A stretch of 64,000 nt of DNA from Flavobacteriales bacterium. Lineage in GTDB: Bacteria > Bacteroidota > Bacteroidia > Flavobacteriales_F > PHOS-HE28. Below are positions 33,322 through 58,468 of the stretch, piece by piece. The notes beneath the pieces were generated by a model, which saw nothing but the letters and a program-made list of their open reading frames with translations, was not told where the DNA came from and ran no database searches. Position numbers and translations under genes: made by a program. Where the stretch lies: contig JAHBUK010000005.1 in the NCBI GenBank assembly GCA_019638115.1, forward strand, positions 91,111-155,110, in the 5' to 3' direction. Within the stretch, counting starts at the first letter, position 1. Each line of letters opens with the position of its first letter.

Positions 33322-33329
33322 GCTGTCCG

Positions 33330-33337: not shown

Positions 33338-33375
33338 GCGGCGCCCGCATTCGACCGGCAGCGATCGTTGAAACA

Positions 33376-34650: not shown

Positions 34651-34704
34651 GCTGCAAAGGTGCGAACGTGTACCGAAGCAGCAGGTGCTATCCGCACACC
34701 GAAC

Positions 34705-35838: not shown

Positions 35839-35932
35839 GGGTGCCGGGTTCTGGCAGCAAGCTACGCAGTGCCCGCGCATCCGGTGTGCGGTGTTCAAGG
35901 ATGCAAGGTTCAATGCCGACCTTCACCGCCGC

Positions 35933-36397
35933 ATGGAAGGGCCGAGCCGGCGCACACGCTTGTTGGTGATCATCGCGCTGGCGGTGCACACGCTGTTGAT
36001 CGCGTGCTACACACTGCCTTCCCGCATGGTGCCCGAGCTGCTTCGCGTGCAGGCCCAGCGCTACGTGCGCCCGGTATTCCACCAGCAGTGGCGCTTGTTC
36101 GCACCCGACCCGCCCACTTGCAGCTGCCGCTTGGAGATGCAGCAGGGCGATGGACCTTGGGAGCCGGTGGAGATACAACTGAGGCATTACTTGGCGCGGC
36201 GCATGGCACGTTCCATCTGCCATCACCTGGGGAGCAGCGATAGCGCCCTGGAAGCGCGGCTGCGCCCGGCCTTGCACCGGCTGATGGCGGTGGCGGATGA
36301 TGGCACGGTCCACTTCCGCAGGGTGGAGCGCTGTGTGCTCGATCCCCATGCACCCGATCGGCGCGAGGAACACGTTCGCACCCTCTTCTCGCCATGA
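35933..36397 (+). CDS. DUF5819 / SdpA-like membrane-anchored protein
   Basis: N-terminal TM followed by YVRPVFHQQWRLFAPDP; ATGA-coupled to an HTTM gene. Confidence 0.7.
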   Translation: MEGPSRRTRLLVIIALAVHTLLIACYTLPSRMVPELLRVQAQRYVRPVFHQQWRLFAPDPPTCSCRLEMQQGDGPWEPVEIQLRHYLARRMARSICHHLGSSDSALEARLRPALHRLMAVADDGTVHFRRVERCVLDPHAPDRREEHVRTLFSP

Positions 36398-37224: not shown

Positions 37225-38011
37225 TGGCGTGCTGCACGAACCAGAAGTGCTGGTCGGCACCCGTATCCGCCGAACCGGTGGTGAGCACCTTGGGCAGATC
37301 GATGTAGCCTGCCCGCAAGGTGTTGCGGATGAAGCCGTGCTTGAACAGGGTGATGTGCAGGCCTGTTTGAGCGCCAAGCCCATAGCCGGCCACGTTGAAA
37401 CGGTTGTTGATGCCCTCGCCAAAGACCCTCACATCGCTGCGCGGGATCACCGCACCGGCATGCGCCCCCGCGAAGAAGTCCAAGCGGAAACGGTGGTCAT
37501 TGTTGTGCCAAAGCCCCTGGTATTTGTCCAGGTCCACGCTCAGCAGGTTAAGGCCATCGGTATGCTCGTAGCGCAGCAGGTCCTCGCTCAGCACCACCTT
37601 GCCCGAACTTCCTGCTGGCCGCGCGTGGCGCGCGGAGCGCTCGGCGTCAACACGGCCTTCCAGCAGTACCTCCTGGTCTTGTTGCACCACGTATTTCATG
37701 TGGTCCATGCCCAGTGAAAGGCTCACTCCGTTCCGCAGGAACCAGCCCACCCGGTAGTTGTATTGCGGTATCCACATGCTGGCCGGTGAGCAGTAGGTGG
37801 CCAGGTCGAAAGCCGAAGGTCGATCCTTGGCGCGCACGTCGCGGAGGGTAAGGTCGTAGCCGGGGCCGTACAGGTGTATGTCGCTGGCCGTGTACCACGC
37901 ACGGTTGTAGCCCCAGTAAAGGAACATGCTACCACGACGGTCGATCTCCTGCGCCACGGCCACGGTCTGCACCAGGGCGAGCAGGAGCGGTAGGAATGCG
38001 ATGCGGAACAC
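37187..38011 (-). CDS. Conserved Bacteroidota outer-membrane beta-barrel protein
   Basis: Signal peptide; YWGYNRAWY..SDIH, IPQYNYRVG, DHMKYV and YEHTDGLN motifs; terminal aromatic strand. Confidence 0.65.
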   Translation of the reverse strand: MFRIAFLPLLLALVQTVAVAQEIDRRGSMFLYWGYNRAWYTASDIHLYGPGYDLTLRDVRAKDRPSAFDLATYCSPASMWIPQYNYRVGWFLRNGVSLSLGMDHMKYVVQQDQEVLLEGRVDAERSARHARPAGSSGKVVLSEDLLRYEHTDGLNLLSVDLDKYQGLWHNNDHRFRLDFFAGAHAGAVIPRSDVRVFGEGINNRFNVAGYGLGAQTGLHITLFKHGFIRNTLRAGYIDLPKVLTTGSADTGADQHFWFVQHAITAGVQFHLLRR

Positions 38012-38462: not shown

Positions 38463-39737
38463 TTACCAGTTGAACAGGGGGCGCAAGCGCATCATGCCGT
38501 TCACCTGGAAACGGATGCGGTCCAGCTCCGCACTATCGCTGGCATGCGTGAGCGTGGCGTCGATGAGTTGTGCGATCTGCTTGCACTCGTCCTCCTTCAG
38601 GCCGCGCGTGGTGATGGCCGCAGTACCGATGCGGATGCCGCTGGTTACGAAGGGGCTCTGGGTGTCGAAGGGCACCATGTTCTTGTTCACGGTGATGTCC
38701 ACCAGGCCAAGCGCTTTTTCGGCGTCCTTGCCGGTGATGCCTTTGTTGCGCAGGTCCACCAGCATGCTGTGGTTGTCGGTGCCACCACTGATCACTTGGT
38801 AGCCCTTGTCCATCAGTGCCGCGGCAAGTGCTTGTGCGTTGGCGATCACCTGTTTTCCGTAGGCTGCGAAACTGGGGTCCAGCGCTTCGCCGAAGGCCAC
38901 GGCCTTTGCAGCGATCACGTGCTCCAGCGGGCCGCCCTGCGTTCCGGGGAACACGGCACTGTCCAGCAAGCTGCTCAGCATGCGGGTCTCGCCTTTCGGG
39001 GTCTTCAGGCCCCAGGGGTTCTCCATGTCGCGCCCCATCATGATCAAGCCGCCGCGGGGTCCGCGCAGGGTCTTGTGCGTGGTGGTGGTCACAATGTGGC
39101 AGTGAGGCAGCGGGTCGTTCAGCAGTTTGGCGGCGATCAGTCCAGCGGGGTGGCTCACATCGGCCAGCAGCAGGGCACCCACTTCATCGGCAATGGCACG
39201 GAAAGCGGCGTAGTCCCAATCGCGGTTGTAGGCGCTTGCCCCGCAGATGATGAGCTTGGGTTTCTCGTCCAGTGCCACGCGGCGCACGGCATCCATGTCC
39301 ACCCGGCCGCTCTCCTTGTCCACGCCATAGAAGGTGGCGCGGTAGAGTTTGCCGCTGAAGTTCACCGGACTGCCGTGGGTAAGGTGCCCCCCATGGCTCA
39401 GGTCGAAGCCCAGGATGGTGTCGCCGGGTTTCAGGCAGGCGAGCATAACGGCCGCATTGGCCTGCGCACCGCTGTGCGGTTGCACGTTGGCCCAAACAGC
39501 GCCGAACAAGCGCTTCACCCGGTCGATCGCCAGGTTCTCGGTACGGTCCACCTGCTCACAGCCGCCGTAGTAGCGTTTGCCGGGCAATCCCTCGGCGTAC
39601 TTGTTGGTCATCACCGAGCCCATGGCGGCCATCACCTGGTCGCTCACGAAGTTCTCACTGGCGATCAGCTCCAAGCCTTTGGTCTGCCGCCATTTCTCTG
39701 CCTCAATGATCTCGAATACCTCGTTGTCGCGCTGCAT
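38463..39737 (-). CDS. glyA: Serine hydroxymethyltransferase
   Basis: [29 protein letters not shown] and SGIRIGT motifs; ATG at 39737. Confidence 0.98.
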
Positions 39738-39761
39738 GCTGTGGTCTTGCTGTGAAGTGGC

Positions 39762-39769
39762 CAAAGGTA
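39762..39769 (-). promoter_or_regulatory. Bacteroidota -7 promoter (TACCTTTG) of glyA
   Basis: Exact TAnnTTTG match upstream of the ATG. Confidence 0.55.
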
Positions 39770-39835
39770 GCCGGTGGCGGGATCGCTGCTCGCATGCCCC
39801 GGCCGGTGCGCCGGAAGCCATTGCCGGTGCCGCGT

Positions 39836-40300
39836 TCAGCGCGTTTGCCGGGCAGCACCGCCCACCAGCCAGGCGGCCCACACCAGGAAGAGCATCACCG
39901 GATATTGCAGGGCATGGAGCAGTTTCACCGAGATGATGCCCAACTGGGGCACGAAAGAACCTGCCAGATGCAGCAGCACGGCCAACGCTCCGGCCATTGC
40001 ATAACCGATCACCAAGGGCTTCCGGTAGGCGTGCGAGCCGAACAGCAGCCGGGCAAGCAGGATGCAAAGGCCGAGCATGGCGGCACTGAGCACCACTGCA
40101 AGCCCCCATTTCAGGCGCATCAGCTCGGCCAGGTCCCAGCCCTTCACCCAGCCGCGGAAGAGCGAGTGCGCATAGGAGTAGGGTGTGCCGTAGCGCACAT
40201 GCTGGATCTGGAAGTTGAGGTTGATGAACAGGAACTCGCGCATCGCTCCCACGGCCAGGCCGGCCAACAGCAACAGCGCCACGAGCAGGTTCCGCATCAT
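39836..40300 (-). CDS. Exosortase X-associated membrane protein
   Basis: Four TM helices with REFLFINLN motif; immediately downstream of the exosortase gene. Confidence 0.65.
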
Positions 40301-45842: not shown

Positions 45843-46679
45843 ATGCGCGCCCTACTGAAGGACCTCTGCCCGCCGATCCTGCTCCGGATGCTGCGCAAGT
45901 TGCGCCCGGTACCACCGCCCTCACCTCCAGTCCAAGCGGGCAGCCAAGCCCAATGGTGTACCGTATCCGCCGGTCCCGTGCAAGGCTGCAAGCTGCTGCT
46001 CAACACCAAGGCAGCGGCTTTCGCACAGATGGCGGCCGGCAGCTACGACGACTTCCTGTGGCAAGCGCTTCAAGGCACTGCGATATCCGGTGGAACGATC
46101 ATTGACGCCGGTGCGCACATCGGCTACCACAGCCTCGGCCTGGCCCAGCTGTACCCCGACTGCCAGGTGGTGGCCTTCGAGCCCAACCCGGCCAACCAGC
46201 AGCGCATCCGCGAACACCTGCAGGCCAACGCCGATCTGGCTGCGCGCATCACCCTGCACGGCCTTGCCCTGGCCGAGCGGGAAGGGGAGGAGGAGTTGAG
46301 CATGAACACGCGGGTGGACGATGAGACCAGCTCCGGCAGCCACCTGGTACGCGCCTTCCAGGCATTGCCCGAGCAGGTGTACCGCAAAGCCGGCTACGCC
46401 ACCCAGCGCGTTCAGGTGCGCAGCCTGGACCAATTGGCCGCCGAGCAACAGTGGAGCGAGGTGCGCCTGATGAAGATCGACGTGGAAGGTGCCGAGCACC
46501 TGCTGCTGCGCGGTGCCCAAGCCCTGTTGCAGCGCGACAAGCCCCTGCTGCTGTTGGAAGTACACGGTGCCGCCTGCATGCTGGAGGTGCTCGCCGTGTT
46601 GCACCCACTGGGCTACACCACCCGCCTGCTGCACGAGGACGGGCCGGCACGCTGCTTCATCATCGCCAGCGCTCGCTGA
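45843..46679 (+). CDS. FkbM family SAM-dependent methyltransferase
   Basis: IDAGAHIGY, AFEPNP and MKIDVEGAE motifs. Confidence 0.88.
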   Translation: MRALLKDLCPPILLRMLRKLRPVPPPSPPVQAGSQAQWCTVSAGPVQGCKLLLNTKAAAFAQMAAGSYDDFLWQALQGTAISGGTIIDAGAHIGYHSLGLAQLYPDCQVVAFEPNPANQQRIREHLQANADLAARITLHGLALAEREGEEELSMNTRVDDETSSGSHLVRAFQALPEQVYRKAGYATQRVQVRSLDQLAAEQQWSEVRLMKIDVEGAEHLLLRGAQALLQRDKPLLLLEVHGAACMLEVLAVLHPLGYTTRLLHEDGPARCFIIASAR

Positions 46680-46694
46680 GCCCTTCATTTCCGC

Positions 46695-46702
46695 TACTTT
46701 TG
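46695..46702 (+). promoter_or_regulatory. Internal Bacteroidota -7 promoter (TACTTTTG) upstream of the vioA-like gene
   Basis: Exact TAnnTTTG match 9 nt before ATG 46712. Confidence 0.5.
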
Positions 46703-46711
46703 GCCAGCTCC

Positions 46712-47854
46712 ATGGCCCACGACGAGCGTCCCGCCGACGCATCCATTTTCGTTACCCGAAGTTTCCTGCCGCCACAGGCCGAATACCAGGCCTGGCTGGA
46801 CAAGGTGTACGCCAGCCACGTGCTCACCAACCTGGGGCCCGTACACCGCGAGTTGGAGAACAACCTGCGCGAACGTTTCGCCGTGCCGCACTTCCGCCTG
46901 ATGGCCAACGGCACCCTGGCCCTGCAGCTCGCCATCCGCGCGCTGGGCGTAACAGGCAAGGTGATCACCACACCCTTCAGCTACGTGGCCACCACCAGCG
47001 CCATCCTCTGGGAGGGCTGCGAACCGGTCTTTGTGGACATCGACCCGCGAACCGGTTGTATCGATGCCGCGCTCATCGAAGCCGCCATCACGCCCGATAC
47101 CACGGCCATTCTCGCCACCCACGTCTACGGCATCCCCTGCGATGTGGAGGCCATCGACACCATTGCGAAGAAGCACGGCCTGAAGGTGATCTACGATGCG
47201 GCCCACGCCTTCGACGTGAACTACAAAGGCCGCAGCATTCTGCAGTGGGGCGATGCCAGCACGCTCAGCTTCCACGCCACCAAGCTCTTCCACACCGTGG
47301 AGGGCGGCGCCGTGGTGCTGCACGATGGAGAGGCCGACAAGCGGTTGAGGCTATTGCGAAGCTTCGGGCACGTGTATGATGAGCACTTCACCTTGGGCAT
47401 GAACGCCAAGATGAGCGAATTGCACGCGGCCATGGGCATGGCGGTGCTGCCGCACATGGAGCACATCATCGCAGAGCGCGCAGCCTTGTCACAGCGCTAC
47501 GATCGGCTGCTCGAAGGGCTTGGCACGGAGCGCCCGCATGTAGCGGCGGATACTACATACAACTACGCCTATTACCCGATCTTCCTGCGTGACAGTGCCG
47601 AGCGCGAAGGCATGCTCCAGGCTTTGGCAGACCAGGGCATACATGCGCGACGCTATTTCTTCCCGTCGTTGGACACGCTTCCTTATGTAAGCGCAACTGC
47701 TTGTCCGCGCAGCCGCGATCTGGCGGACCGTGCCCTGTGCCTACCGCTCTACAACGGGCTTACACCGGCCGATCATGAACGCATTTGTGCAGGTGTGAGC
47801 GCTTTCTTGGAGCAGCACCGCAAGCGGGTTCCGAACAACGTGGTGCAGCCATGA
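46712..47854 (+). CDS. vioA: DegT/DnrJ family sugar aminotransferase, VioA-like (dTDP-4-amino-4,6-dideoxyglucose synthase)
   Basis: LTNLGP, NGTLAL, VITTPFSYVAT, HVYGIPCD, IYDAAHAF and SFHATK (PLP Lys) motifs; the N-terminus IFVTRSFLPP resembles the VioA subfamily. Confidence 0.8.
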   Translation: MAHDERPADASIFVTRSFLPPQAEYQAWLDKVYASHVLTNLGPVHRELENNLRERFAVPHFRLMANGTLALQLAIRALGVTGKVITTPFSYVATTSAILWEGCEPVFVDIDPRTGCIDAALIEAAITPDTTAILATHVYGIPCDVEAIDTIAKKHGLKVIYDAAHAFDVNYKGRSILQWGDASTLSFHATKLFHTVEGGAVVLHDGEADKRLRLLRSFGHVYDEHFTLGMNAKMSELHAAMGMAVLPHMEHIIAERAALSQRYDRLLEGLGTERPHVAADTTYNYAYYPIFLRDSAEREGMLQALADQGIHARRYFFPSLDTLPYVSATACPRSRDLADRALCLPLYNGLTPADHERICAGVSAFLEQHRKRVPNNVVQP

Positions 47855-48555
47855 CGCTCGCCGTCATGCAACCCTATTTGTTCCCCTACCTGGGGTACTT
47901 CCAGCTGATCCATGCGGTGGACCGTTTCGTGGTCTACGATGACGTGAATTACATGAAGCAGGGTTGGGTGAACCGAAACAGGGTCTTGGTGAACGGGGAG
48001 CCGCACATGTTTACCCTGCCTTTGCGCGGTGCAAGCTCATTCGCGATGATCCACGAACTAGAGATCGATCCACGCCAATTCGGTCCATGGCGTGACAAGT
48101 TCCTGCGCACACTGGGCCAGGCCTATGCCAAGGCTCCCCATGTGCAACGCGTGCAAGAGCTTGTTCGATCCCTGTTCGAAGGGTCTCACTACCGCTTGGA
48201 GGACGCGCTGCTCGCCAGCCTGCGTGGGGTCATGCACCACCTGCACATCCATACGGAAGTGGTGCCTTCCTCCCGGAAGTACGGCAATGCCCACTTGCGC
48301 GGCCAGGATCGCGTGCTCGATATCTGCAAGCAGGAAGGAGCCAAGCGCTACGTGAACGCTATCGGTGGCAAGGATCTCTATGAAAAAGCCGTGTTCGGAG
48401 GTGCTGGTATCGAGTTGCGCTTCCTGCGTTCGGCCTTGCCGCCATACCCCCAATTCGCAGGTCCTTTCGTACCAGGCCTGTCCATCATCGATGTGCTCAT
48501 GTTCAATGGGCCGGAGGAGGTGCGGGGCATGTTGGACCAGTACACCTTTGAGTAA
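47851..48555 (+). CDS. WbqC family protein (putative amino-acyl transferase to amino sugar)
   Basis: MQPYLFPYLGYF, DDVNY...GWVNRNR, AYAKAP, YVNAIGG and LSIIDVLM motifs. Confidence 0.9.
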   Translation: MTLAVMQPYLFPYLGYFQLIHAVDRFVVYDDVNYMKQGWVNRNRVLVNGEPHMFTLPLRGASSFAMIHELEIDPRQFGPWRDKFLRTLGQAYAKAPHVQRVQELVRSLFEGSHYRLEDALLASLRGVMHHLHIHTEVVPSSRKYGNAHLRGQDRVLDICKQEGAKRYVNAIGGKDLYEKAVFGGAGIELRFLRSALPPYPQFAGPFVPGLSIIDVLMFNGPEEVRGMLDQYTFE

Positions 48556-49823
48556 TGCGGAAGCGGCAGGTGAAGCGGGCGTTGGTGCTGGGTGGGGGGC
48601 AGGACCAGGTGCCCTTGTTCTCTTTGCTCGAAGCGCATGGTGTGGAGGCCATGTTGCTGGATTACTTGGAGGATCCTCCGGCACGTGCTCTGGCCGCGCG
48701 GCATTTCCAGGAAAGCACCTTGGACCGCGAGGCCGTGCTCCGAGTGGCACGGGAAGCTGAGGTGGATCTCTTGATCTCGGCGGGCAACGATCTGGTGGTG
48801 ACCACCCTGGCTTCCGTTTCCGAGGAGTTGGGCCTTTACCACAACATTTCGTTGGATACGGCCATCAAGGCGACCGACAAACACCGGATGAAAGCCTGTT
48901 TCCAGCAGGCTGGTATCCCGATGCCACAGGGTGTGGAGTTGAATACATTGGATCAGGCCAGGCAGCGGGCCATTGAATTGGGATACCCCTTGGTCGCCAA
49001 GCCTGTGAAAGGCACCAGTTCAAAGGGTGTGGTGCGTATCCCGGATGCTTTTGCACTGGATCATGCTTGGTCCCAGCTCCGCTCGGCCGTGCCGGAGGGC
49101 CCGGTCGTTCTGGAGCAGTTCATCAGCGGTGCTGAAGTTTCCGTGGACGCCTTCGTGTTGGAAGGGCAGGTGCATGTGCTCGGGATCACCCAGCTGAACC
49201 AAGTGCCGGGATTGCCCCAGGGCTTTTCGTTCCTCAGCACCCTGATGCCGGCGCCTTTGCCGGATGCGGCGCGTGATCGTGTATTGTCCATTGCGGCGGC
49301 TTTGGCCCCGGCTTTCGGCATTACCAATGGTCCCTTCTTCTTTCAGGCCATGGTACAAGGTGATGCCGTGTACGTGCTGGAGATGGGTGCGCGAACGGCT
49401 GGTGGAGCCAAGTACCGCTTCATCCAAGCGGCAACGGGCTTCGATCTCCTGGCCGCCTACGTGGATCTTTTGTTGGGATCACCTGTGGTGGTCCCGCCCA
49501 TTGAGCCGCGAGGTTTCAATGCCATGACCCACGTTTACGCCCATCCCGGTACCATGGCAGAACTGATCGGGACCGAGGAGGCCTTGGTCGCCGGCCATGT
49601 GCGCTATTTCCTGCCGCCCAAGCCGGTCGGGTCTGGAGTAGGGCAGGGACTCGCAGCACGCGATCGTGTGCTGTCGTTCATGGCGCAGGGAGAGACCATG
49701 AGCGCGTTGCAGCAGCACATCGAGGCAGCTTTGGCCACCCTGCACGTGTTGGATCCGATGGGCAGGGATCTCATCCGGCGCGATCTTTATCCCCCTGCTA
49801 CAAAGCCCGACGATCGACCGTGA
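48555..49823 (+). CDS. ATP-grasp carboxylate-amine ligase (L-amino acid ligase-like)
   Basis: LVLGGG, TDKHRMK, PLVAKP..G.SSKGV, EQFISGAEVS and VLEMGARTAGG motifs. Confidence 0.85.
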   Translation: MRKRQVKRALVLGGGQDQVPLFSLLEAHGVEAMLLDYLEDPPARALAARHFQESTLDREAVLRVAREAEVDLLISAGNDLVVTTLASVSEELGLYHNISLDTAIKATDKHRMKACFQQAGIPMPQGVELNTLDQARQRAIELGYPLVAKPVKGTSSKGVVRIPDAFALDHAWSQLRSAVPEGPVVLEQFISGAEVSVDAFVLEGQVHVLGITQLNQVPGLPQGFSFLSTLMPAPLPDAARDRVLSIAAALAPAFGITNGPFFFQAMVQGDAVYVLEMGARTAGGAKYRFIQAATGFDLLAAYVDLLLGSPVVVPPIEPRGFNAMTHVYAHPGTMAELIGTEEALVAGHVRYFLPPKPVGSGVGQGLAARDRVLSFMAQGETMSALQQHIEAALATLHVLDPMGRDLIRRDLYPPATKPDDRP

Positions 49824-51658
49824 ACCGTTTATTCCTCGCATCCACCCTTGGGAACGACCCGCACACCGAAGGACCGCATATTGCGAGCAAGGTGGCCAAG
49901 TTGGCGGATATCCCCAGCGTACTGCTGAAGCCCAGTCCCGATCATGCACTGATCCTGGAAGGGATCCATACGCACGACCCGCTGTTCCTCGGTTTCAGTT
50001 ATCGTCTTACCCCGGCCATCGGCGTGGCGGAGTTCAAGAAGGTGCTCTTCGCCTTGCGTAATGAAGGCCTCCTGGTCGGGCGGAACGGGGAGCCACGCCA
50101 GATCGCTTTCTCTGGACTGCCGGACACCATCGCCAAGCTGCGCGCCATTATCCATGAACTGCCTTGTCCGGTGCAGCTCATGGAACCCCATCCCAATGTG
50201 ATGGACCGCATCGATGGCATGCTGGACTTCTTCGCCGTGGTGAAGGACCGGGATCGCATCCGGACCACGCTGCGCAACGAGATCGAGCCGCCTGGCATCG
50301 CCATGCTGGATCAGTTGGCCGATGAGGTGGTGCGTGGCAAGGACTACCTGAACGAGCCGCCTTTGCCGGTTCCTTCGCCGGCTGCCATCAAGGACTATAC
50401 GGTGCGTATCCAGGAGTCCGGCCTGCCGGTGATCCGCAGTCACTTCGGCATCCCGCACAGCACCATCGAACCCACAGTGGAAGGAATTCGCGAGATCGCC
50501 GAAGCGCGGGTGATCGATGAGGTCTCCTTGGGCAGCAGCGACCTTTCCCAGCGTTACTTCGGCAAGCCCGAAGAGTTCGAGAAGCGCAAGGATGACGGTG
50601 GTGTGCCCTACCGAACGGAAGCCGATCTGGTGCGGCTCTTCCAAGCATCGCGCACCGGTAACCACCCCAGCCTGAAGCCATACGCCCACGTGGTGGATCT
50701 GGTGCCTTTCATCGACACCTGCATCCGCACCGGCATGTTGGTCGGTGCCCATCAGGCGATCCCGCTTTTCTGGTTCAACCAATTGGATGGACGCGGCCCA
50801 ACACCCGTACCCGAGAGCATCGCAGAGCACATCGCGGCCGTGCGTGAATTGGCACGTCGAGGCATACCGGTGGAGATGAACGACCCCAACCAGTGGAGCT
50901 CCCGCTGGGCACACGATACCATCATTGTATCCTCCTACGCCCTCATCAGTGCAGTGATGAGCACCAATGGGGTGAAGGACATGGTGCTGCAGATGCAGTT
51001 CAACAAGCCCCGCGAGACCAGCGATCATGGTGATCTGGCCAAGATGACCGCGGGGCTGGAGATCGCCGCCACCATCGCTTCGCACACCAAGCCAGCGCCG
51101 AACATCTACCGGGAAACACGCACCGGCATCGAGAGCTTGAGCCCCGACCTGGACAAGGCGCGCTGGCAGCTTGGGCGCAGCACTCTGCTGCAGATGATGG
51201 TCGATCCGCACATCCTGCATCTCGTCAGCTTCTGCGAGGCCAACTATGCGGCCCGGCCTGCGGACATCATCGAGAGCTCCAAGCTGATCCGCCGCGCGGT
51301 ACGCATTTTCCGGGAGCATGCGCCAGACCTGCTCAAGAACCTGGAGGACCCGATCGTGCTGGAACGGCGTGAGCACCTGCTGAAGGAGGCCAGCTACCTG
51401 CTGCGCGAGATCGCCAAGCTGAACGAGGACTACGGCGACCAGCCCCTGCCCGCCCTCGCACCCCTGCTGGCCGATGCGCGAACACTGGCCGCATCCATGG
51501 AGCACAGGCTCATGAGCGCCCCAGGTATCGTATTGCCCGATTACGCCAACCCCTCCTTGGTCACCAGGCCTCGGAACGGGTTCATCGATGCGGTGGACAA
51601 TGTGACCGGCACCCGTGTGCTGACCGAAGCGGAACGAACTTCAGCTGCTGGTTCCTGA
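49820..51658 (+). CDS. Cobalamin-binding protein: N-terminal B12 Rossmann domain fused to a barrel-like domain, mutase-like, function unknown
   Basis: LGNDPHTEG (DxHxxG) and GFSYRLTP in the B12 domain; PVIRSHFG, GGVP, AIPLFWFNQLDGRGP, PVEMND..QW, QMQFN.P, DLAKM, TRTG and EANYAA motifs; only three scattered Cys, so no radical-SAM motif. Confidence 0.75.
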   Translation: MNRLFLASTLGNDPHTEGPHIASKVAKLADIPSVLLKPSPDHALILEGIHTHDPLFLGFSYRLTPAIGVAEFKKVLFALRNEGLLVGRNGEPRQIAFSGLPDTIAKLRAIIHELPCPVQLMEPHPNVMDRIDGMLDFFAVVKDRDRIRTTLRNEIEPPGIAMLDQLADEVVRGKDYLNEPPLPVPSPAAIKDYTVRIQESGLPVIRSHFGIPHSTIEPTVEGIREIAEARVIDEVSLGSSDLSQRYFGKPEEFEKRKDDGGVPYRTEADLVRLFQASRTGNHPSLKPYAHVVDLVPFIDTCIRTGMLVGAHQAIPLFWFNQLDGRGPTPVPESIAEHIAAVRELARRGIPVEMNDPNQWSSRWAHDTIIVSSYALISAVMSTNGVKDMVLQMQFNKPRETSDHGDLAKMTAGLEIAATIASHTKPAPNIYRETRTGIESLSPDLDKARWQLGRSTLLQMMVDPHILHLVSFCEANYAARPADIIESSKLIRRAVRIFREHAPDLLKNLEDPIVLERREHLLKEASYLLREIAKLNEDYGDQPLPALAPLLADARTLAASMEHRLMSAPGIVLPDYANPSLVTRPRNGFIDAVDNVTGTRVLTEAERTSAAGS

Positions 51659-51700
51659 GCGGCTGCTACATTGTGCGCTGCACATCCCGATCGCGCAACG

Positions 51701-52195
51701 ATGTCAAGTGGACTTAAGTACATCCTCACCTATGCGTATGTGGGCTTGATGATGGCAGCCATCGGGGTCCGGCTGTTCTCAACGCACACCTTTCCGGACA
51801 ACGAGCCTTACCCGGCCTTTCTGTATCCGAGTTTCGCTGTGGCCAAGAACCCCGATGGGGAGTTCCGGATGCCCTTACAGTCGATCCTGCTGCTGCACAC
51901 TAACGGCGATACAACGGTCGTGGACCAAGGCCTGCTGTTCCCTCCCAAACCGTTCAACTCCTCACTGAAACCGGTCATCGACCGTATGATCGCGAATGTG
52001 AAGCAGGCCCAAGCGAACGGTGATCCGGCATTGCAAGAATTCCAGCATTGGTTGGCAAGCCGCCTGGCCGCCGAACATGACCTGGCCGATGTGGCCGAGG
52101 TGGCGCTGGTCTCGCAGTACATCCCTTTTTGGGAGAACGGGCAGGTGGTGGGTGGATTGACCATGTTCGACCAGGTGATGGTCACATTGCCATGA
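51701..52195 (+). CDS. Membrane-anchored HTTM partner protein
   Basis: N-terminal TM followed by EPYPAFLYPSF; ATGA overlap with the downstream HTTM gene. Confidence 0.6.
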   Translation: MSSGLKYILTYAYVGLMMAAIGVRLFSTHTFPDNEPYPAFLYPSFAVAKNPDGEFRMPLQSILLLHTNGDTTVVDQGLLFPPKPFNSSLKPVIDRMIANVKQAQANGDPALQEFQHWLASRLAAEHDLADVAEVALVSQYIPFWENGQVVGGLTMFDQVMVTLP

Positions 52196-53328
52196 AGTGG
52201 TTCCAAGACCCCTTGCGGATACATGCGGTGCCTACCCGCCAATTGTCGGCGTTCCGTTGGGTTTGGGCCGTACTCTTCATGTTCTATGGATTGCCGGAGT
52301 ACACCTTCCTCGGCACCTTCCCGGACCTGTTGTTCTCACCCCCTTACTACAGCCTGGCGAACCTGCTTTCCGGGTGGCCGACCGCAGGCTTCTTCCTGGG
52401 GCTTACCGTGTTGAACCTGCTGGCATTCACCTGCATCGCCTTGGGGCTCTTCACCCGGCAGGCATCGGTGCTGTTCTCGCTCACGGCCTTGATCGGGCAC
52501 AACTTCAAGTATTCCTTCGGAAAGATCGATCACAGTGAACTGTTTTTGCTCGTGGCGCCGCTCTTCCTTGCCTTCGCTGGGTGGGGAAGACACTTTTCGT
52601 TCGATGCTATTGTCGCTGTACGCCGCGGCCGCCTGAACACCACAGACCAGGATGTGGATAACGGCACGGCCATGGGCTTGCTCGCATTATCCTTCGCGGT
52701 GGCCATGCTCTCATCCGGCCTGATGAAACTGCAGGGTGGATGGGCCGCTTGGGATATCGAGGCGATCAAAGGGAACATGACACGCAACGTGATCACCACG
52801 GGGCGTGAGAACCATTGGACCGGACCCTTGCTGGCCGTGGATTCACACCTGTTCTGGAAGTTGGCGGACTATGGCGTTCTGCTCTTCGAGATCGGTTTTA
52901 TACTGGCCGTGCTGAGCCGCAGGTTGTGGATGGCCTTCCTGTTGGGTACGATCGTTTTCCACTACGCCATCTGGCAGACCTTCCAGATCGCCTTCTACCA
53001 CAATCCGGTATTCTATCTCGTCTTCATCAAGTGGCCTCCAGGATCGGTCAAATGGCCTGCTTTCCTGCAGGACGGCGTGCGTGACTGGTTGTTCGCTGCG
53101 TGGTCGATCGTCGTGGTCCTGTTCGCCGCCAATGCACTTCGGTACCTCTTACTGGGCTTGGTGCAAGGCTATCATTGGGACTACTTCAACCTGTTGTGGC
53201 GCTTCGGTATCAAAGTGCCCAAGTACGATCTGGTTTTCCTGGGCTGTGCCACGCTGTTCGTGTTGGCCATCATGCTCGGGAGCGGTGTCGGACGATCAAG
53301 GAAGGTGCGGGTGGGGTCCAAGTCCTGA
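52192..53328 (+). CDS. HTTM-like polytopic membrane protein
   Basis: Multi-TM; YSFGKIDH, SGLMKLQGGW, LFEIGF and FH...F.I.F motifs. Confidence 0.7.
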   Translation: MKWFQDPLRIHAVPTRQLSAFRWVWAVLFMFYGLPEYTFLGTFPDLLFSPPYYSLANLLSGWPTAGFFLGLTVLNLLAFTCIALGLFTRQASVLFSLTALIGHNFKYSFGKIDHSELFLLVAPLFLAFAGWGRHFSFDAIVAVRRGRLNTTDQDVDNGTAMGLLALSFAVAMLSSGLMKLQGGWAAWDIEAIKGNMTRNVITTGRENHWTGPLLAVDSHLFWKLADYGVLLFEIGFILAVLSRRLWMAFLLGTIVFHYAIWQTFQIAFYHNPVFYLVFIKWPPGSVKWPAFLQDGVRDWLFAAWSIVVVLFAANALRYLLLGLVQGYHWDYFNLLWRFGIKVPKYDLVFLGCATLFVLAIMLGSGVGRSRKVRVGSKS

Positions 53329-53442
53329 AGATCACGGGGCACCGCTGGTGGCCCGGGTCTTCAACACTGATGTAGGGCCGAACGATGTGCCGTAACATTG
53401 CGGTCCAGAGCGCGGTGTATGCCGAACGCGTAGCTCCAGTAC

Positions 53443-55014
53443 ATGTCCCAAAGCATCTTCGACCTTCCTGCCAGTGTGTTGATGGCATCCGGCGGTGACG
53501 AACGGATCACCTTGGATGAGAATAATGGATTGAACGGCTATGGTTGTGCGCCATATCCATCCTTTACGATCTCCTATTCATCCAGCACCAGCAACACAAT
53601 TTCGGCCGCGGCGTACGCGCACGTGGAGTCCTTCCTCTACAGCCTTCGCCAGCAGTGTGTAAGCGCCAAGGTGGGGCAGGTCTTCCGGGATCGGTTCGAG
53701 GTAGTGCGGCAGGCACTCCGCCAGGTGTACGGATGTTCCGAACAGGACCGGATCTTCTTCGGTGCATCCGGTACTGACCTGGAGCTGATCGTGCTGGCCC
53801 TTGCCTTGAACGGGCCTGAGCGCCGGGCGCACAACATCATTCTGGGCATGGATGAGGTCGGAAGTGGGATACAGCACGCCAGTATGGGCCGCTACATCTC
53901 TTCCGGCACACCGCTGGGTCATACCTGTCAGGTGGGGACCAGCATCGAGGGGTTCCCCGAGGACCGGATCACCATGAGCGGTGTGGCCATCCGCGATGCC
54001 AACGGGCGGGTACGTTCCATGGATGCGCTTGCCACCGACCTCGATGCGGAAGTATCGCAAGCCATCGAATGCGGGCGGAGACCCATTGTACACGTGGTGC
54101 ACCGGAGCAAGACCGGCATGGTGGTCCCGGATTGGGACCTGCTTCGCAACGCCATGGTCAAGTGGGAGGGCCGCGCCGACGTGGTGGTCGATGCCTGCCA
54201 GGGCCGCATATCCCCGCTGATGTTGCGCTCCTATCTGGCGCTGGGCTGCTCCGTGCTGTATACGGGCTCCAAGTTCATCGGTGGCCCGCCCTTCTCAGGG
54301 GCCCTGTTCGTTCCTGAGCAGTTGGCCAACAGGTTCAAACATCCCGATGCAGTGCCACAGGGTCTGTTCGGGATATTCTCTCCGGCAGAATGGCCGCAGG
54401 ACCTTGTGCCAGCATCTTCCGGGCATGACGAGGCGCTCAACCTGGGTTTGCTCCTGCGCTGGGAAGCGGCCATCTATGAACTGCGCCGCGTTACCGCCAT
54501 CGACGAGGACCGTCTGCGCTTCACCATACGCTGTTTCCAGGAGGAGGTCATGACCATGGTGGAGCGTTCCCCTTGGCTGGGCATGGTCAGTGAACTCGAG
54601 GGGGATGGTTCCATTGCCGAGGAGTGCCGCGAGCATCCTTTCGAGCGGGACATGATCATGACCATGACCATCGGTGGGACCGGGGCGGATGGCTTGGACC
54701 TGGAGGATGGCAAGTTCATCTACCGCTCGATGTTCTCCGATCTTGAATTGGCGGACGGCGTGCAGGACCCGATCGCCAATACACACATCCAATTGGGCCA
54801 GCCCGTGAAATGCCGCAAGTTGGACGATGGCCGATGGCAGGCCACCCTGCGCGTATCACTGGGCGCACCCACCATCAGCGAGGTGGCCTTCGCCAGTGAT
54901 GAGGCCATCCGCGCACGATTCGTATCGGACATGGGGCGCATCCATCGAAAGCTCGAACTGGTGTTGGAGCAGATCCGGCTGAACCGTGGGGTCAACATAA
55001 CGGCACAGCTCTAA
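53443..55014 (+). CDS. Divergent PLP-dependent fold-type-I enzyme (class V aminotransferase/decarboxylase-like)
   Basis: SGTD, VVDACQGR (PLP-binding Asp), TGSKFIGGPPFSGA (Schiff-base Lys); N-terminal SGGDERI...YGCAP motif. Confidence 0.65.
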   Translation: MSQSIFDLPASVLMASGGDERITLDENNGLNGYGCAPYPSFTISYSSSTSNTISAAAYAHVESFLYSLRQQCVSAKVGQVFRDRFEVVRQALRQVYGCSEQDRIFFGASGTDLELIVLALALNGPERRAHNIILGMDEVGSGIQHASMGRYISSGTPLGHTCQVGTSIEGFPEDRITMSGVAIRDANGRVRSMDALATDLDAEVSQAIECGRRPIVHVVHRSKTGMVVPDWDLLRNAMVKWEGRADVVVDACQGRISPLMLRSYLALGCSVLYTGSKFIGGPPFSGALFVPEQLANRFKHPDAVPQGLFGIFSPAEWPQDLVPASSGHDEALNLGLLLRWEAAIYELRRVTAIDEDRLRFTIRCFQEEVMTMVERSPWLGMVSELEGDGSIAEECREHPFERDMIMTMTIGGTGADGLDLEDGKFIYRSMFSDLELADGVQDPIANTHIQLGQPVKCRKLDDGRWQATLRVSLGAPTISEVAFASDEAIRARFVSDMGRIHRKLELVLEQIRLNRGVNITAQL

Positions 55015-55020
55015 CGCGCA

Positions 55021-56136
55021 ATGGCTACAACGAAAGAAGGTGCTAAGCCAAGGTTTTGGGCGAACAATCCGCTGATGCGGCCTATGCTGTGGTACCTGCA
55101 GCGCAAGGGCATGAACATACACTACGCCCGGCGCTACGTCAACGAGTTCATGTTCGACCTGCTCCACAACAAGGATGTGCCGTTCAAACAGAAAGTCTGG
55201 GCCTGGAAACGCGGCTTCCATCCGGAACGCATCACGCGCTACGGACTTACTGACGAGAACCACCGCGATTACATGTCGGAGTTCGAGTACTACAAGCAGT
55301 CCTCCTTCAAGAACGCAGGCTACAACTGGTGGATCGAGGACAAGCTCCTGTTCAGGTACGTCATGGAACCCTTCAAACAGTTCCTGCCGGCCTACTATTT
55401 CGCCATGTACAAGCACGTGGTGCGCGGCTTGCCCGACCTGCCTGCCGATGTGGAACAGGACCTGAACGGTGTGATGGCCCTGCTGCGCAGCAAAGGCACC
55501 CTGGCCGCAAAGGCGATCAAAGGCGCGCGCGGCAAAGGCTTCCATCGCTTGGCGTGGGAGGACGGCCGCTACCGCGTGGACCACGATGCGCTGGATGAGA
55601 AGGCGTTCAAAGCCTTCCTCCAAGGCTTGCACAACTACATCATCACCGATTATGTGGTGTGCCATCCGGATCTCCGCCGCATCTATCCACACACGCCGAA
55701 CGCGGTGCGCCTGATCACCATCCACGACCCGGATGAAGGCACGAAGATCACCGGCTCGTTCATCCGCTTCGGTACATCCCGCTCCGGCTTCGTGGACAAC
55801 GCCTCAGCTGGTGGGCTTTTCTGCGGTGTCGACCTCCGTGATGGACGCATCTTCGATCCCAAGCAATACATGGGCAAACAGATCGTGCCTGCTCCTGTGC
55901 ATCCCGAGACAGGCGTGCCGGTGGAAGGACATATTCCGCACTGGGACCTGATCCTGCAGCAGGGTGTGCGCATTGGCGATTTCCTGTCCTTCCTGCCTTA
56001 TCTGACCTATGACCTGGTAGCCACCGAGGACGGTTTCAAGATCTTGGAGATCAACTCGCACGGAGCGCTTTCACACCTTCAGCCATTCTATCCCTTCTTC
56101 AAGGACCCCTACCAGCGCAAGCTCTTTGGCCGATGA
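55021..56136 (+). CDS. Sugar-transfer-associated ATP-grasp protein (ATPgrasp_ST-like)
   Basis: EDKLLF, KAIKGARGKG, TPNAVRLIT, VDNASAGG, HPETG..IPHWD and YDLV...ILEIN motifs. Confidence 0.75.
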   Translation: MATTKEGAKPRFWANNPLMRPMLWYLQRKGMNIHYARRYVNEFMFDLLHNKDVPFKQKVWAWKRGFHPERITRYGLTDENHRDYMSEFEYYKQSSFKNAGYNWWIEDKLLFRYVMEPFKQFLPAYYFAMYKHVVRGLPDLPADVEQDLNGVMALLRSKGTLAAKAIKGARGKGFHRLAWEDGRYRVDHDALDEKAFKAFLQGLHNYIITDYVVCHPDLRRIYPHTPNAVRLITIHDPDEGTKITGSFIRFGTSRSGFVDNASAGGLFCGVDLRDGRIFDPKQYMGKQIVPAPVHPETGVPVEGHIPHWDLILQQGVRIGDFLSFLPYLTYDLVATEDGFKILEINSHGALSHLQPFYPFFKDPYQRKLFGR

Positions 56137-57407
56137 TCAACGCTGCAGGTGAACGTGGCCCGGTGGTGGGGATCCATGGCGTGAGCAGCCAGACAGGGAT
56201 GGCCCTTTTTGCCGACCTTATCGGGCGCGGCATCGAAGTATTCGGCCATGCGCGTGATACCGAGCACGGAAGGAGCGTTGTGGATGCTATCCGAGCGCGA
56301 GGCAGCATCCGTTTGGAACGTCCTCCCAACCAGAACGAGGAGGGCTCCCGGGACGTGCCGCTCGGCAAGAACTGGATCGGTCATGACATCCGCGTGCTGG
56401 TGGAACATGCCGATATCATTCTGCTCCCGATCCCATCCCACCATCATGAGGAGGCGGTGAAAGCGCTCCATGATGCCGGGGTTTCCGAGCGACGCATCCC
56501 CTTGGTGCTGATGCCGGGACGCACCTTCGCCGCTCCATACATCTGGCGCATCACAGGCGCCGATCATCCCATCGTCTGCTTCTCAACAGCACCTTATTCC
56601 AGCAAGACCCGCGCATCGGATACCGTGTTCATCAAGCGCCGCAAGCGTACCTGGCTCGCATCCTTGGAAGGTGACCTGAGCAGAAAGTCGGAAGCTGATC
56701 TGGCTTTTCTTTTCCCTCAGGCGGCGATCACCACCATACCGGCACTTACCTCGCTCAACAACATCGGTGCGGTCTTCCATCCGGCTACCTACATGCTCAA
56801 CCAAGCTGCCATTCGCGAACGGATGGCCCAGGGAGCATCCTACTCCTTCTACATGGAGGGCATCCACCAGCAACCCGAAGTGGGGGCGGTTCTTGAGGAG
56901 ATCGATCAGGTACGGCTGCGCATCGCAGACACCTTGGGCCTCGAAGTATTCGGTCTGAAGGATCATCCTCGCGAGGACATCTGGCGCAAGCTCACCAATG
57001 GACTTAGGGCCTTGGAAGAAGAGCACGAGGAGGAGATCGAGGCCCTTCGCAGCATACGCGGCCAGTTCATGCGCTTCCTGAACAATGCGGTGATCTCCGC
57101 ACAGCACTGGTTGGACATCACCTACGGGGTGCAGCGCATCCCCGGCGAACCCTTGCACGAGGCCATTGGTCGCACGCCCACCTACCAGCGCGATTCCGTT
57201 CCACAGTTGCGTTACGTGGAAGAGGATGTGCCCACGGGCTTGGTGCCCTTGGAAGCCCTGGCCCTGCGTACTGGCATCGATCCAGGACCGATCACCGACA
57301 TCATCGATCGTTGCAGTGATCTGGTGGGGTCCGATCTTCGGAAAAGCGGACGCAACCTGCGCGAATTCACTGATGACGAGGTACGCAGTTACCTGCTGGG
57401 GCGATGA
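56133..57407 (+). CDS. NAD/NADP-dependent octopine/nopaline (opine) dehydrogenase family protein
   Basis: LNNIGAVFHP, SFYMEG, IDQVRLRIADTLG and RYVEEDVPTGLVP C-terminal domain motifs; atypical N-terminal Rossmann loop. Confidence 0.75.
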   Translation: MINAAGERGPVVGIHGVSSQTGMALFADLIGRGIEVFGHARDTEHGRSVVDAIRARGSIRLERPPNQNEEGSRDVPLGKNWIGHDIRVLVEHADIILLPIPSHHHEEAVKALHDAGVSERRIPLVLMPGRTFAAPYIWRITGADHPIVCFSTAPYSSKTRASDTVFIKRRKRTWLASLEGDLSRKSEADLAFLFPQAAITTIPALTSLNNIGAVFHPATYMLNQAAIRERMAQGASYSFYMEGIHQQPEVGAVLEEIDQVRLRIADTLGLEVFGLKDHPREDIWRKLTNGLRALEEEHEEEIEALRSIRGQFMRFLNNAVISAQHWLDITYGVQRIPGEPLHEAIGRTPTYQRDSVPQLRYVEEDVPTGLVPLEALALRTGIDPGPITDIIDRCSDLVGSDLRKSGRNLREFTDDEVRSYLLGR

Positions 57408-58468
57408 CGATCGAAGCGATCAAGCAGGAGTTGGCGCGCTCGTTACCCGGGTTGGAGGCCCTGCGCGCGCTGTCCTACGAAGTGCCCAACAGGGTTCTGG
57501 AAGAGATCCCTCATCCATTGGTTTCCGTGCGGGTCATCACCTTTCGACACCTAGCCTACCTGAGGCGTTGCGTGGAAAGCATCCTCGCCCAGCGGACGAC
57601 CTTTCCATTCGAAGTGCTCATCGGTGAGGACCACAGCGATGATGGCACGCGTGAACTGGCGTTCCAACTTGCCAAGGAGCATCCAGGCCGGATCCGTTTG
57701 ATAACGGCCGACCGCAATGTGGGGGTGAAGGCCAATGGCTACCGCCTACGTATGGCCGCTCGCGGGGAGTTCACCGCCCTGTGCGAAGGAGATGACCACT
57801 GGTTGGATGAGAACAAGCTGCAGGGCCAAGTGGATACCCTGCTCTCCGATCCACAAGCTGTGGGCTGTTTCACCAATGCCTGGAACGAGCGGGATGGATC
57901 AAGGAGTGATTACATCAGTGTCTGGTTGGGCAAGGAACCCTGTCCTGAAAAGGTGTTCCTGAAGGACATCATCGGCCGCAACTTCATTCCCACGGCGTCC
58001 TTGGTGTATCGCACCGCGGCACAACGACCGCTCGATCCGGTCACCAGCAAGGCCCCTTTGGGTGATCAGAAACTGCACGTGAACCTGCTCACTTACGGAC
58101 ATTACCGCTTTCTTCCGCGCTACACAGTGGTGCGTGAGGTCCATGCCGGAGGGGTGATCTCCATGAAAAGCCATTTGGAGAAATTGGACTCCAACATCAA
58201 TTCCCTGAAGGTACTTAGTGAAGTGATCGGACAGGAGCACCAGCATGTGGTGCGCCAGCGTATGGCGGAACTGCTCGACCGGGCTGTGCGAGCCGCCCGT
58301 GTGGCGGGTGATCGCATTGCCTCCCGCAGCTATTTGGAACGTTTGTTTGCCTTGCCGGACAACGGTTTGTCCTGGAGAAGAAGGTTCCGTTTGCTCATCT
58401 TCGCCTACGCCCCCGATGCGATCGTGGAATGGGTGCGGGACAACAAGCGAAAACATGCCGACCGTTGA
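57404..58468 (+). CDS. Glycosyltransferase family 2
   Basis: VSVRVITF, IGEDHSDDGT, ALCEGDDHW...KLQ.Q motifs. Confidence 0.88.
   Translation: MTIEAIKQELARSLPGLEALRALSYEVPNRVLEEIPHPLVSVRVITFRHLAYLRRCVESILAQRTTFPFEVLIGEDHSDDGTRELAFQLAKEHPGRIRLITADRNVGVKANGYRLRMAARGEFTALCEGDDHWLDENKLQGQVDTLLSDPQAVGCFTNAWNERDGSRSDYISVWLGKEPCPEKVFLKDIIGRNFIPTASLVYRTAAQRPLDPVTSKAPLGDQKLHVNLLTYGHYRFLPRYTVVREVHAGGVISMKSHLEKLDSNINSLKVLSEVIGQEHQHVVRQRMAELLDRAVRAARVAGDRIASRSYLERLFALPDNGLSWRRRFRLLIFAYAPDAIVEWVRDNKRKHADR

Follow-up and report, generated by a model that had tools for sequence, protein, structure and literature searches.

A cobalamin mutase-like gene paired with an opine dehydrogenase gene in a bacterial surface-polysaccharide locus

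INTRODUCTION

Few reaction classes are known for adenosylcobalamin (AdoCbl) and, to our knowledge, none of them has an accepted role in the biosynthesis of surface polysaccharides; literature searches for such a role of an AdoCbl enzyme found none. Here, we focus on a 64,000-nt stretch of DNA from a Flavobacteriales bacterium (contig JAHBUK010000005.1; the whole stretch is called the window below), in which a gene for a cobalamin mutase-like protein lies within a surface-polysaccharide locus. It is the second of seven cassette genes, named g1 to g7 in order, that occupy positions 48555-57407. The core of this cassette is the pair of g2 with g7, a member of the opine dehydrogenase family. The best explanation of the data, and on balance a likely one, is that this pair makes a rearranged opine-type acid, which the ligases of the locus would then amide-link to an amino sugar or a uronate.

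Several described systems resemble parts of the cassette. Octopine synthase, nopaline synthase and CntM are opine dehydrogenases, and we know of no opine synthase that is tied to a B12 mutase. The glutamate mutase operon of E. coli O157 includes MutL/GlmL and methylaspartate ammonia-lyase as partners. In the formation of pyrrolysine, the radical mutase PylB gives a branched amino acid, the ATP-grasp enzyme PylC ligates it to an amine, and the dehydrogenase PylD finishes the product. The capsule of Campylobacter jejuni HS:2 contains a glucuronamide, for which the pyridoxal phosphate (PLP) enzymes Cj1436 and Cj1437 make the amine and the ATP-dependent amidoligase domain of Cj1438 joins it to the uronate (PMC11800379, PMC11800397). 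An initial annotation of the window, made from the sequence alone, knew of no described glycan pathway that combines the parts seen here. Literature searches agree with this, giving no description of a B12 mutase combined with an opine dehydrogenase or of the recruitment of this combination into polysaccharide loci. The parts of the cassette belong to known superfamilies, and no characterized member of the g2 family was found in the literature.

THE g2-g7 PAIR IN OTHER GENOMES

A scan of one genome per species gave 49 mutase loci from about ten phyla, and their gene neighborhoods were surveyed by tblastn with the seven window proteins. The Bacteroidota among them are Alistipes, Tidjanibacter, Rikenellaceae, Muribaculaceae, Sangeribacter and Flavobacterium, and the Bacillota are Tissierellia, Clostridia, Amphibacillus, Halolactibacillus and Natronobacillus; others belong to Chloroflexota, Myxococcota, Planctomycetota, Hydrogenedentes, Thermotogota, Smithella, Balneolia and one archaeon. 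A g7 homolog lies within 10 kb of g2 in 43 of the 49 loci and is directly adjacent to it in most. In five of the six loci without one, the contig stops a short way from g2. Because the linkage recurs in this many independent species genomes, the clustering is far beyond chance. The initial annotation had treated the seven genes as one conserved system. This does not stand, since g3, g4 and g5 were detected in none of the 49 other mutase loci and only very close relatives carry them. The core of the cassette is the g2-g7 pair, not the seven-gene unit.

The remaining genes of the cassette are represented to varying degrees. ATP-grasps of the g1 type occur in 23 loci, directly upstream of the mutase gene, ATPgrasp_ST proteins in 18 (up to four copies) and DegT proteins in 16, and in 26 loci the genes of the pair are mixed with those for ligases, DegT and glycosyltransferases. 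Capsule loci of Bacteroidales show the order GT4, Bac_transf, ATP-grasp, mutase, ATPgrasp_ST (one or two), aldo-keto reductase, PGA_cap, opine dehydrogenase and DegT, and Polysacc_synt_2 and EpsG are also found around the module in Bacteroidota. Nearest to the window is the Flavobacterium order (DegT, WbqC, ATP-grasp, mutase, ATP-grasp, opine dehydrogenase), with the run from WbqC through ATP-grasp to mutase common to the window and the Flavobacterium loci L007 and L020. In Hydrogenedentes, the mutase is followed by an ATP-grasp, the opine dehydrogenase, a GT2, LPG_synthase_TM and DegT. The expectation that the genes co-occur in polysaccharide loci was thus correct in part: g2 does accompany an opine dehydrogenase and ATP-grasps in capsule or O-antigen-type loci of many Bacteroidota, some Bacillota and Hydrogenedentes, and g3 to g5 do not take part in this.

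Two loci deserve a separate description. In a Rikenellaceae locus (L019:2909-7007), two Mur-type ligases and a paralog of the D-Ala-D-Ala ligase Ddl stand between the mutase and the opine dehydrogenase, which hints at a side chain like a stem peptide built on a sugar. On a metagenome contig (L062:35-4463), an Octopine_DH gene lies before a 31%-identical mutase paralog, P0281, fused to a RimK/GshB-type ATP-grasp, and a Peptidase_C26/GATase gene lies after it. Here the theme of mutase, opine dehydrogenase and ligase is condensed into three genes.

THE COBALAMIN MUTASE-LIKE ENZYME g2

Queried alone, g2 has no match in Pfam (even at E<=10), in NCBIfam or among PDB sequences. Its family is nevertheless large. 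A word-index search gave more than 900 homologs at E<=0.001, with 57-64% identity across phyla, and an exhaustive profile search found about 380 family representatives at 50% identity. From Bacteroidota to Thermotogota and one archaeon, the family is conserved at 45-64% identity. Almost all of these proteins are without a name, one being titled "cobalamin B12-binding domain-containing protein", and the family has no Pfam or NCBIfam model. The window copy departs from the family consensus at eight positions only, all conservative, and therefore looks intact.

The predicted architecture combines a His-on (DxHxxG) B12-binding Rossmann domain in residues 1 to about 125 with a GlmE-like TIM barrel from about 200 to 610. 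Across 34 homologs, D13-P-H15-T-E-G18 (DPHTEG, the DxHxxG motif) is invariant, and so are S60 and G99, which are spaced as the SxL and GG motifs of B12 domains. The AlphaFold2 model (pLDDT 90.8) shows beta/alpha alternation over residues 5-121. When this model was compared with known structures by Foldseek, the top matches were glutamate mutase E (6h9e_B and 1cb7_B, E about 1e-11, target-normalized TM score 0.64-0.65), followed by ornithine 4,5-aminomutase, lysine 5,6-aminomutase and methylmalonyl-CoA mutase.

The aminomutases in this list raise the question of whether g2 could instead shift an amino group, like ornithine 4,5- or lysine 5,6-aminomutase, with g7 acting on the new amine or imine to give a substituent derived from a beta- or diamino acid. 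Their Foldseek ranks are 3-7 (about 2e-8 to 1e-7), 3kow_B superimposes with a root-mean-square deviation of 3.3 Å over 349 columns, and a gene for a PLP enzyme is present in the window. On the other side, glutamate mutase E is the top fold match and the only family reached by Pfam in the relatives of g2. Furthermore, the PLP anchor of the ornithine and lysine aminomutases is, as we take it, a lysine in the B12 domain; the B12 domain of g2 has no invariant lysine, and g5, the PLP enzyme in question, never occurs with g2 in the 49 other loci. We therefore regard an aminomutase as unlikely.

Profile comparisons bring in the sequence evidence for the B12 domain. A profile made from close homologs alone did not reach B12 domains significantly. 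Once it was widened with distant relatives, it matched the B12 domains of 4jgi (4e-7), 2yxb (1e-4) and methionine synthase in the PDB, and the DxHxxG, SxL and GG motifs of g2 fall on the matching motifs of 4jgi and 2yxb. Some of the distant relatives themselves match Pfam B12-binding, with scores of 17-28 bits under its cut-off of 32.1 bits. One of them, P0281, matches Met_asp_mut_E with 27.5 bits against a cut-off of 26.6, in addition to its C-terminal GSH-S/RimK ATP-grasp, and three others (P0293, P0296 and P0299; 826-1266 aa) are fused to PF13941 MutL, the accessory component of glutamate mutase. Neighbors of a MutL-fused relative at L064:3908-7588 are oligopeptide-ABC ATPases and a protein of the AAT family (PF03417), and an opine dehydrogenase is not among them; the MutL-fused relatives look like a separate branch, possibly linked to peptide metabolism.

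For the barrel, GlmE of E. coli O157 served as the reference in hhalign, with residue numbering checked on 6h9e_B. The g2 family aligned to it with a probability of 27% in local mode, which covered the C-terminal half only; the greedy and global modes both covered the whole barrel, with probabilities of 67% and 82%. In this alignment, GlmE Glu330, which presumably contacts the adenosyl ribose, pairs with the invariant Glu473 of g2. A gene for a PduO-type cob(I)alamin adenosyltransferase (PF01923) is located beside the opine dehydrogenase in a Bacteroidales capsule cluster (L004:16981-17472) and also in L005 and L006, which fits a requirement for AdoCbl.

At the level of sequence, the B12 domain is matched best by corrinoid proteins and by the cobalamin domain of methionine synthase. 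This would suit a corrinoid methyltransferase or another non-radical B12 protein, in which case g7 would be a plain dehydrogenase. We judge this to be very improbable, as the barrel of g2 matches AdoCbl mutases and not methyltransferase barrels, relatives are fused to MutL or match Met_asp_mut_E, Glu330 is matched by Glu473, and the L004 cluster carries the adenosyltransferase gene. From the predicted fold and the profiles, g2 is best assigned as a fused member, of the S+E type, of the AdoCbl mutase superfamily. The earlier suggestion of a DxHxxG cobalamin mutase-like enzyme, not of the radical-SAM kind, in a polysaccharide locus is hence borne out.

THE OPINE DEHYDROGENASE g7

The assignment of g7 is more direct, with a Pfam Octopine_DH (PF02317) match of 79.4 bits (4e-22; cut-off 30). 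In the PDB sequence search it aligns with CENDH (1bg6) at 3e-20 in two stretches, in which 'AVFHP' of g7 lies on 'AVMHP' of CENDH and RYVEEDVPTGLVPL of g7 on RYFFEDVSTGLVPL of CENDH. Among 44 g7 homologs, conservation of the motifs FHP and RYxxEDxPTG reaches 90% or more. We take the His of the 'HP' motif to be catalytic and RYxxED to bind the substrate in opine dehydrogenases. Relative to CENDH and to the opine dehydrogenase of L062, g7 and its orthologs have a charged helical insertion of about 45 residues (residues ~275-320), which appears to be specific to the mutase-linked subfamily.

THE LIGASES g1 AND g6

Two genes of the cassette encode putative ligases. The Pfam match of g1 is to ATP-grasp_4 (3e-11), with ATP-grasp_3 and ATP-grasp also over their cut-offs and LAL_C2, at 23.8 bits, below its cut-off of 29.4 bits. 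In the PDB, g1 comes closest to the L-amino acid ligase 3vot (5e-20), BacD follows at 6e-12, and there is a weak NCBIfam match to PylC (2e-10). From these families, g1 is presumed to form an amide bond. For g6, the match is to ATPgrasp_ST (PF14397; 3e-27, 95.9 bits against a cut-off of 31.4), and a PDB search found no solved structure related to it; g6 is presumed to be an amidoligase.

THE LINEAGE-SPECIFIC GENES g3, g4 AND g5

The genes in the middle of the cassette are those that the survey did not find in the other mutase loci. Like g2, their products gave no match when run directly against Pfam, NCBIfam and PDB sequences. g3 has no match in Pfam (even at E<=10, DUF5819 PF19136 included) or in NCBIfam. 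It is weakly similar to the DUF5819 protein of the window (BLASTP E 0.004 over 48 residues), and we take DUF5819 to be the usual small partner of bacterial HTTM proteins. g4 is likewise without a direct Pfam match at E<=10, HTTM PF05090 included. Among 14 homologs of g4 (21-28% identity, E 1e-29 to 1e-4), five match PF05090, the best at 6e-12, and only through these homologs is g4 assigned as a probable divergent relative of HTTM. A second pair of a small protein and a membrane protein, with a 4-bp overlap, is located at 35837-37224 (+) of the window, downstream of a 1227-aa protein (31507-35190) that has no Pfam match. It may be the second HTTM-type pair of the window.

Without a direct match in Pfam (even at E<=10) or among PDB sequences, g5 was placed through its AlphaFold2 model (pLDDT 87.5). 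Foldseek returned 911 matches at E<=0.001, the top ones all PLP enzymes, including GAD65/67, SufS, Trp decarboxylase and Egt2 at about 1e-11. T274-G-S-K277-F and D250-x-C-Q (DACQ) are invariant in the family, making Lys277 the candidate PLP lysine and D250 the candidate Asp for binding the pyridine nitrogen, and 6 of 38 homologs match Aminotran_5. As modeled, g5 is a predicted fold-type-I PLP enzyme of an unnamed family that resembles class V aminotransferases and group II decarboxylases. Members of this family are found in other glycan loci without a mutase, and in two of three loci examined they are followed by a protein of 517-530 aa with an SGGxDS PP-loop motif. The two neighbor proteins at L056:11568-13160 and L059:11641-13194 are 45% identical to each other and have a GNSGGLDSR motif (PP-loop, asparagine-synthetase-like), which suggests a separate, unnamed glycan-tailoring pair of a PLP enzyme and an amide-forming enzyme.

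Relatives at 82-89% identity keep the order of the window, with g3-g4 and g5 included. Together with their absence from the surveyed loci, this points to g3-g4 and g5 as a putative lineage-specific insertion. An HTTM-mediated step at the membrane, which the initial annotation had entertained, is not supported.

A PROPOSED PATHWAY

In the pathway that we propose, g2 would carry out an AdoCbl-dependent radical 1,2-shift on a small amino or oxo dicarboxylic acid, and g7 would couple this step to the reductive condensation of an amine with a 2-oxo acid. The condensation would pull an otherwise unfavorable equilibrium towards a branched, opine-type polycarboxylic amino acid. g1 and g6 would then amide-link this acid, and possibly further amino acids, as may the extra ATP-grasps, Mur-type ligases and Ddl paralog of other loci. 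Gene order and family chemistry suggest as acceptor either the amino group of a sugar, presumed to be the product of the DegT/VioA-type enzyme of the locus, or the carboxylate of a uronate. Attachment would precede the building and export of the polymer by the six glycosyltransferases and the Wzc/ABC machinery. The most likely part for g5 would be to supply a second amine or amino-acid substituent to the amide ligase. This is proposed because relatives of g5 are paired elsewhere with an AsnB-like enzyme and because of the analogy with the PLP enzymes and amidoligase of Campylobacter.

Several observations weigh against this pathway. At the level of the genes, locus L013 has the mutase and ligases with full flanks and no opine dehydrogenase, and in 23 of the 49 loci, of which 9 extend for 5 kb or more to either side, the opine dehydrogenase and mutase genes stand alone, in this order, among unrelated genes. 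A uronate-forming dehydrogenase was not seen in the annotated part of the window. At the level of the proteins, the nucleotide loop of g7 (GIxGxSSQxG in the 44 homologs) has a variant spacing compared to the classical GxGxxG, and g2 fails both Pfam B12-binding (PF02310) and Met_asp_mut_E (PF06368). Finally, GlmE R66, R100, R149 and E171 align with H208, Q244, A289 and H311 of g2, in an alignment of 13% identity in which shifts of 1-3 residues are possible.

The last point concerns the identity of the substrate. We take the 'arginine claw' of Arg66, Arg100 and Arg149, together with Glu171, to be the substrate-binding residues of GlmE. Basic residues of g2 (R206, R245 and K286) are found 1-3 positions from the sites aligned with the claw. 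Because the substrate-binding residues of GlmE are not in register, the conversion of glutamate to 3-methylaspartate is doubtful for g2. In addition, MutL/GlmL and methylaspartate ammonia-lyase were not seen in the window or among the neighbor clusters of the 49 loci, and MutL was found only as a fusion in distant relatives. On these two grounds we rejected a glutamate mutase proper, and strictly speaking g2 probably does not belong to the glutamate mutases.

The lone pairs bear on the destination of the product. Operons of this kind are found in Amphibacillus, Halolactibacillus, Thermotogota, Chloroflexota and one archaeon, and the neighbors of lone pairs include PTS/GH1 genes, an AraC regulator with GH31, an ankyrin protein and a hydrolase. 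An MFS transporter gene directly follows the mutase gene in L022, L026, L034 and L048 (Myxococcota, Gemmataceae and an unclassified metagenome-assembled genome), which suggests export or import of the product or substrate of the pair. As g2 and g7 occur alone outside glycan loci, they are not intrinsically glycan enzymes, and their substrates must therefore be common metabolites and not sugar-bound intermediates.

It could be argued from this that the product of the pair is a small molecule that stays free, for example a metallophore of the opine type, an osmolyte or a signal, that its place in the locus is a matter of co-regulation or hitch-hiking, and that the ATP-grasps add ordinary amino acids. 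CntM-type opine dehydrogenases do make exported metallophores, and both the bare operons in unrelated neighborhoods and the transporters of Myxococcota and Gemmataceae are in line with such a role. We give this account a low probability. In the 26 loci mentioned above, genes for ligases, DegT and glycosyltransferases are mixed in with the pair and not merely near it; in the window, g7 shares 4 bp with a glycosyltransferase gene, and g1 overlaps WbqC on one side and g2 on the other; and the paralog P0281 is fused to an ATP-grasp. The glycan role put forward in the initial annotation finds support where the pair is embedded among ligases and glycosyltransferases, and does not extend to the pairs that stand alone in non-glycan contexts, some of them beside an MFS transporter. 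The two uses of the pair, for a free metabolite and for a glycan, could coexist.

Returning to the proposed pathway, we also lean towards a cassette assembled from three modules with different histories. More speculatively, and short of what we would call probable, g2 may represent a new functional class of AdoCbl carbon-skeleton mutases, with a substrate other than glutamate, an obligate opine-synthase partner and new branched opine-type acids as products. Bacteria and some archaea would use these in two ways, as a free exported metabolite in MFS-linked operons or as a building block that ATP-grasp and Mur-type ligases join into peptide-like side chains of capsules and O-antigens. The structure of surface glycans would then depend on vitamin B12.

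The wide conservation of the g2 family and its near-constant linkage to an opine dehydrogenase point to a specific part of metabolism that is still unexplored. Among the carriers are gut Alistipes, Rikenellaceae and Muribaculaceae, and if the product is indeed found on the capsules of gut Bacteroidales, the chemistry of surface antigens would be tied to the availability of B12. The presence of the pair would also flag, at the level of genes, unusual glycan substituents of the N-acyl or amide kind whose biosynthesis is unexplained. Since some strains that encode the pair are in culture (Amphibacillus marinus CGMCC 1.10434, Halolactibacillus alkaliphilus CGMCC 1.6843 and Natronobacillus azotifigens 24KS-1), the question is directly testable.

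ORGANIZATION OF THE LOCUS

An open reading frame (ORF) map of the window contains all seven genes on the + strand (Table 1), and their coding frames are marked by a GC content at third codon positions of 0.70-0.78 in a sequence of 60-65% GC. A minus-strand ORF at 49829-51505 (558 aa) was rejected as a shadow ORF of g2, and an ORF at 36431-37717 as an artefact in the wrong frame.

Table 1. Coordinates of the cassette genes and of other features in the window
Feature	Position	Strand	Basis
DegT/VioA-type sugar aminotransferase (context)	46451-47854	+	Pfam DegT_DnrJ_EryC1 1e-91, domain from residue 111
WbqC-family protein (context)	47851-48555	+	Pfam WbqC 1.7e-69
g1, L-amino-acid-ligase-type ATP-grasp	48555-49823	+	Pfam, PDB sequence match
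g2, putative single-chain cobalamin enzyme, 612 aa	49820-51658	+	Predicted fold, profiles, invariant DPHTEG
g3, small protein, one N-terminal hydrophobic segment, translationally coupled to g4	51671-52195	+	Start TTG 51671 or ATG 51701
g4, polytopic membrane protein, putative divergent HTTM relative, 378 aa	52192-53328	+	HTTM through homologs only
g5, predicted fold-type-I PLP enzyme	53443-55014	+	Predicted fold, profiles, homologs
g6, ATPgrasp_ST	55021-56136	+	Pfam PF14397
g7, opine-dehydrogenase-family NAD(P)H oxidoreductase	56133-57407	+	Pfam Octopine_DH
GT2, first of six glycosyltransferases	57404-58468	+	Pfam Glycos_transf_2 3e-17
DUF5819 protein	35837-36397	+	Pfam 1.7e-6
276-aa polytopic membrane protein	36394-37224	+	Overlaps DUF5819 gene by 4 bp

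The genes are tightly joined. The end of DegT and the start of WbqC (ATG at 47851) have 4 bp in common, WbqC and g1 overlap by 1 bp at 48555, and g1 and g2 by 4 bp (49820-49823). The spacing between g2 and g3 is 12 nt, or 42 nt if g3 starts at ATG 51701, and g3 and g4 overlap by 4 bp with the g4 start at ATG 52192, the start that gives the 378-aa form on record. A gap of 114 nt separates g4 from g5. It is followed by a gap of 6 nt between g5 and g6 and overlaps of 4 bp at both g6/g7 and g7/GT2 (57404), the latter tying the cassette to glycan assembly. These junctions divide the cassette into two blocks, and the layout of seven co-oriented genes in two tight blocks is the same as initially annotated.

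Pfam annotation also confirms the position of the cassette between DegT/VioA-WbqC and six glycosyltransferases, which continue from g7 to the end of the window. Beyond DegT and WbqC, the upstream side has genes for a Wzc-like protein (Wzz/GNVR/P-loop), an ABC protein and an FkbM methyltransferase. The DegT ORF is probably too long as called, with the true start about 300 nt into it. As to the families first assigned to the cassette genes, Pfam agrees for g1, g6 and g7, folds and profiles agree for g2 and g5, and homologs agree for g4 as HTTM; the description of g3 as an HTTM partner is unconfirmed. No Rfam match was found in the window, and therefore no cobalamin riboswitch, and promoter-like and terminator-like sites are no more common than in shuffled sequence. 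Elsewhere in the window, the Pfam SHMT domain of a serine hydroxymethyltransferase (SHMT) ORF at 38463-40109 (-) is preceded by about 125 codons, which are probably an extension from ORF calling and no real N-terminal domain.

COMPARISON WITH KNOWN SYSTEMS

Of the known systems, the route to the vicenistatin starter unit shares with the window a B12 mutase, a PLP enzyme and ATP-dependent ligases. Its coupling of a mutase with a PLP decarboxylase had been taken as a model for the cassette. This logic is without comparative support because g3 to g5 are absent from all 49 other loci; the vicenistatin coupling thus differs from g2 and g5, which never co-occur there. The amidation system of Campylobacter HS:2 is similar to the window in the logic of a PLP enzyme and an ATP-grasp-type ligase (g5 and g6 are adjacent), and it has neither a B12 enzyme nor an opine dehydrogenase. 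The pyrrolysine route has the same three-step logic of mutase, ATP-grasp and dehydrogenase as the cassette. However, PylB is a radical-SAM and not a B12 enzyme, PylD is outside the opine dehydrogenase family, and the acceptor is lysine instead of a sugar.

At the level of the individual enzymes, g7 is like CENDH of Arthrobacter (1bg6) in its Octopine_DH match and in the His-Pro and RYxxED motifs, and differs from opine dehydrogenases in its insertion of about 45 residues, its unusual nucleotide loop and its genetic tie to a B12 mutase. Ornithine 4,5- and lysine 5,6-aminomutase (3kow and 1xrs), the second-best fold match of g2, have a B12 Rossmann domain and a TIM barrel as g2 is predicted to have and belong to the same superfamily. 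In contrast to g2, with a B12 domain that has no conserved lysine, they are PLP-dependent two-subunit enzymes of amino-acid fermentation. Closest to g2 is the glutamate mutase GlmS/GlmE of Clostridium cochlearium (1cb7, 6h9e), which has the same base-off/His-on signature (DxHxxG...SxL...G) and TIM barrel. Unlike GlmS/GlmE, g2 appears to unite the S and E parts in a single polypeptide that begins with the B12 domain. Its constant partner is an opine dehydrogenase, in place of the nearby MutL and methylaspartase genes of glutamate mutase, and its setting is biosynthetic, not fermentative.

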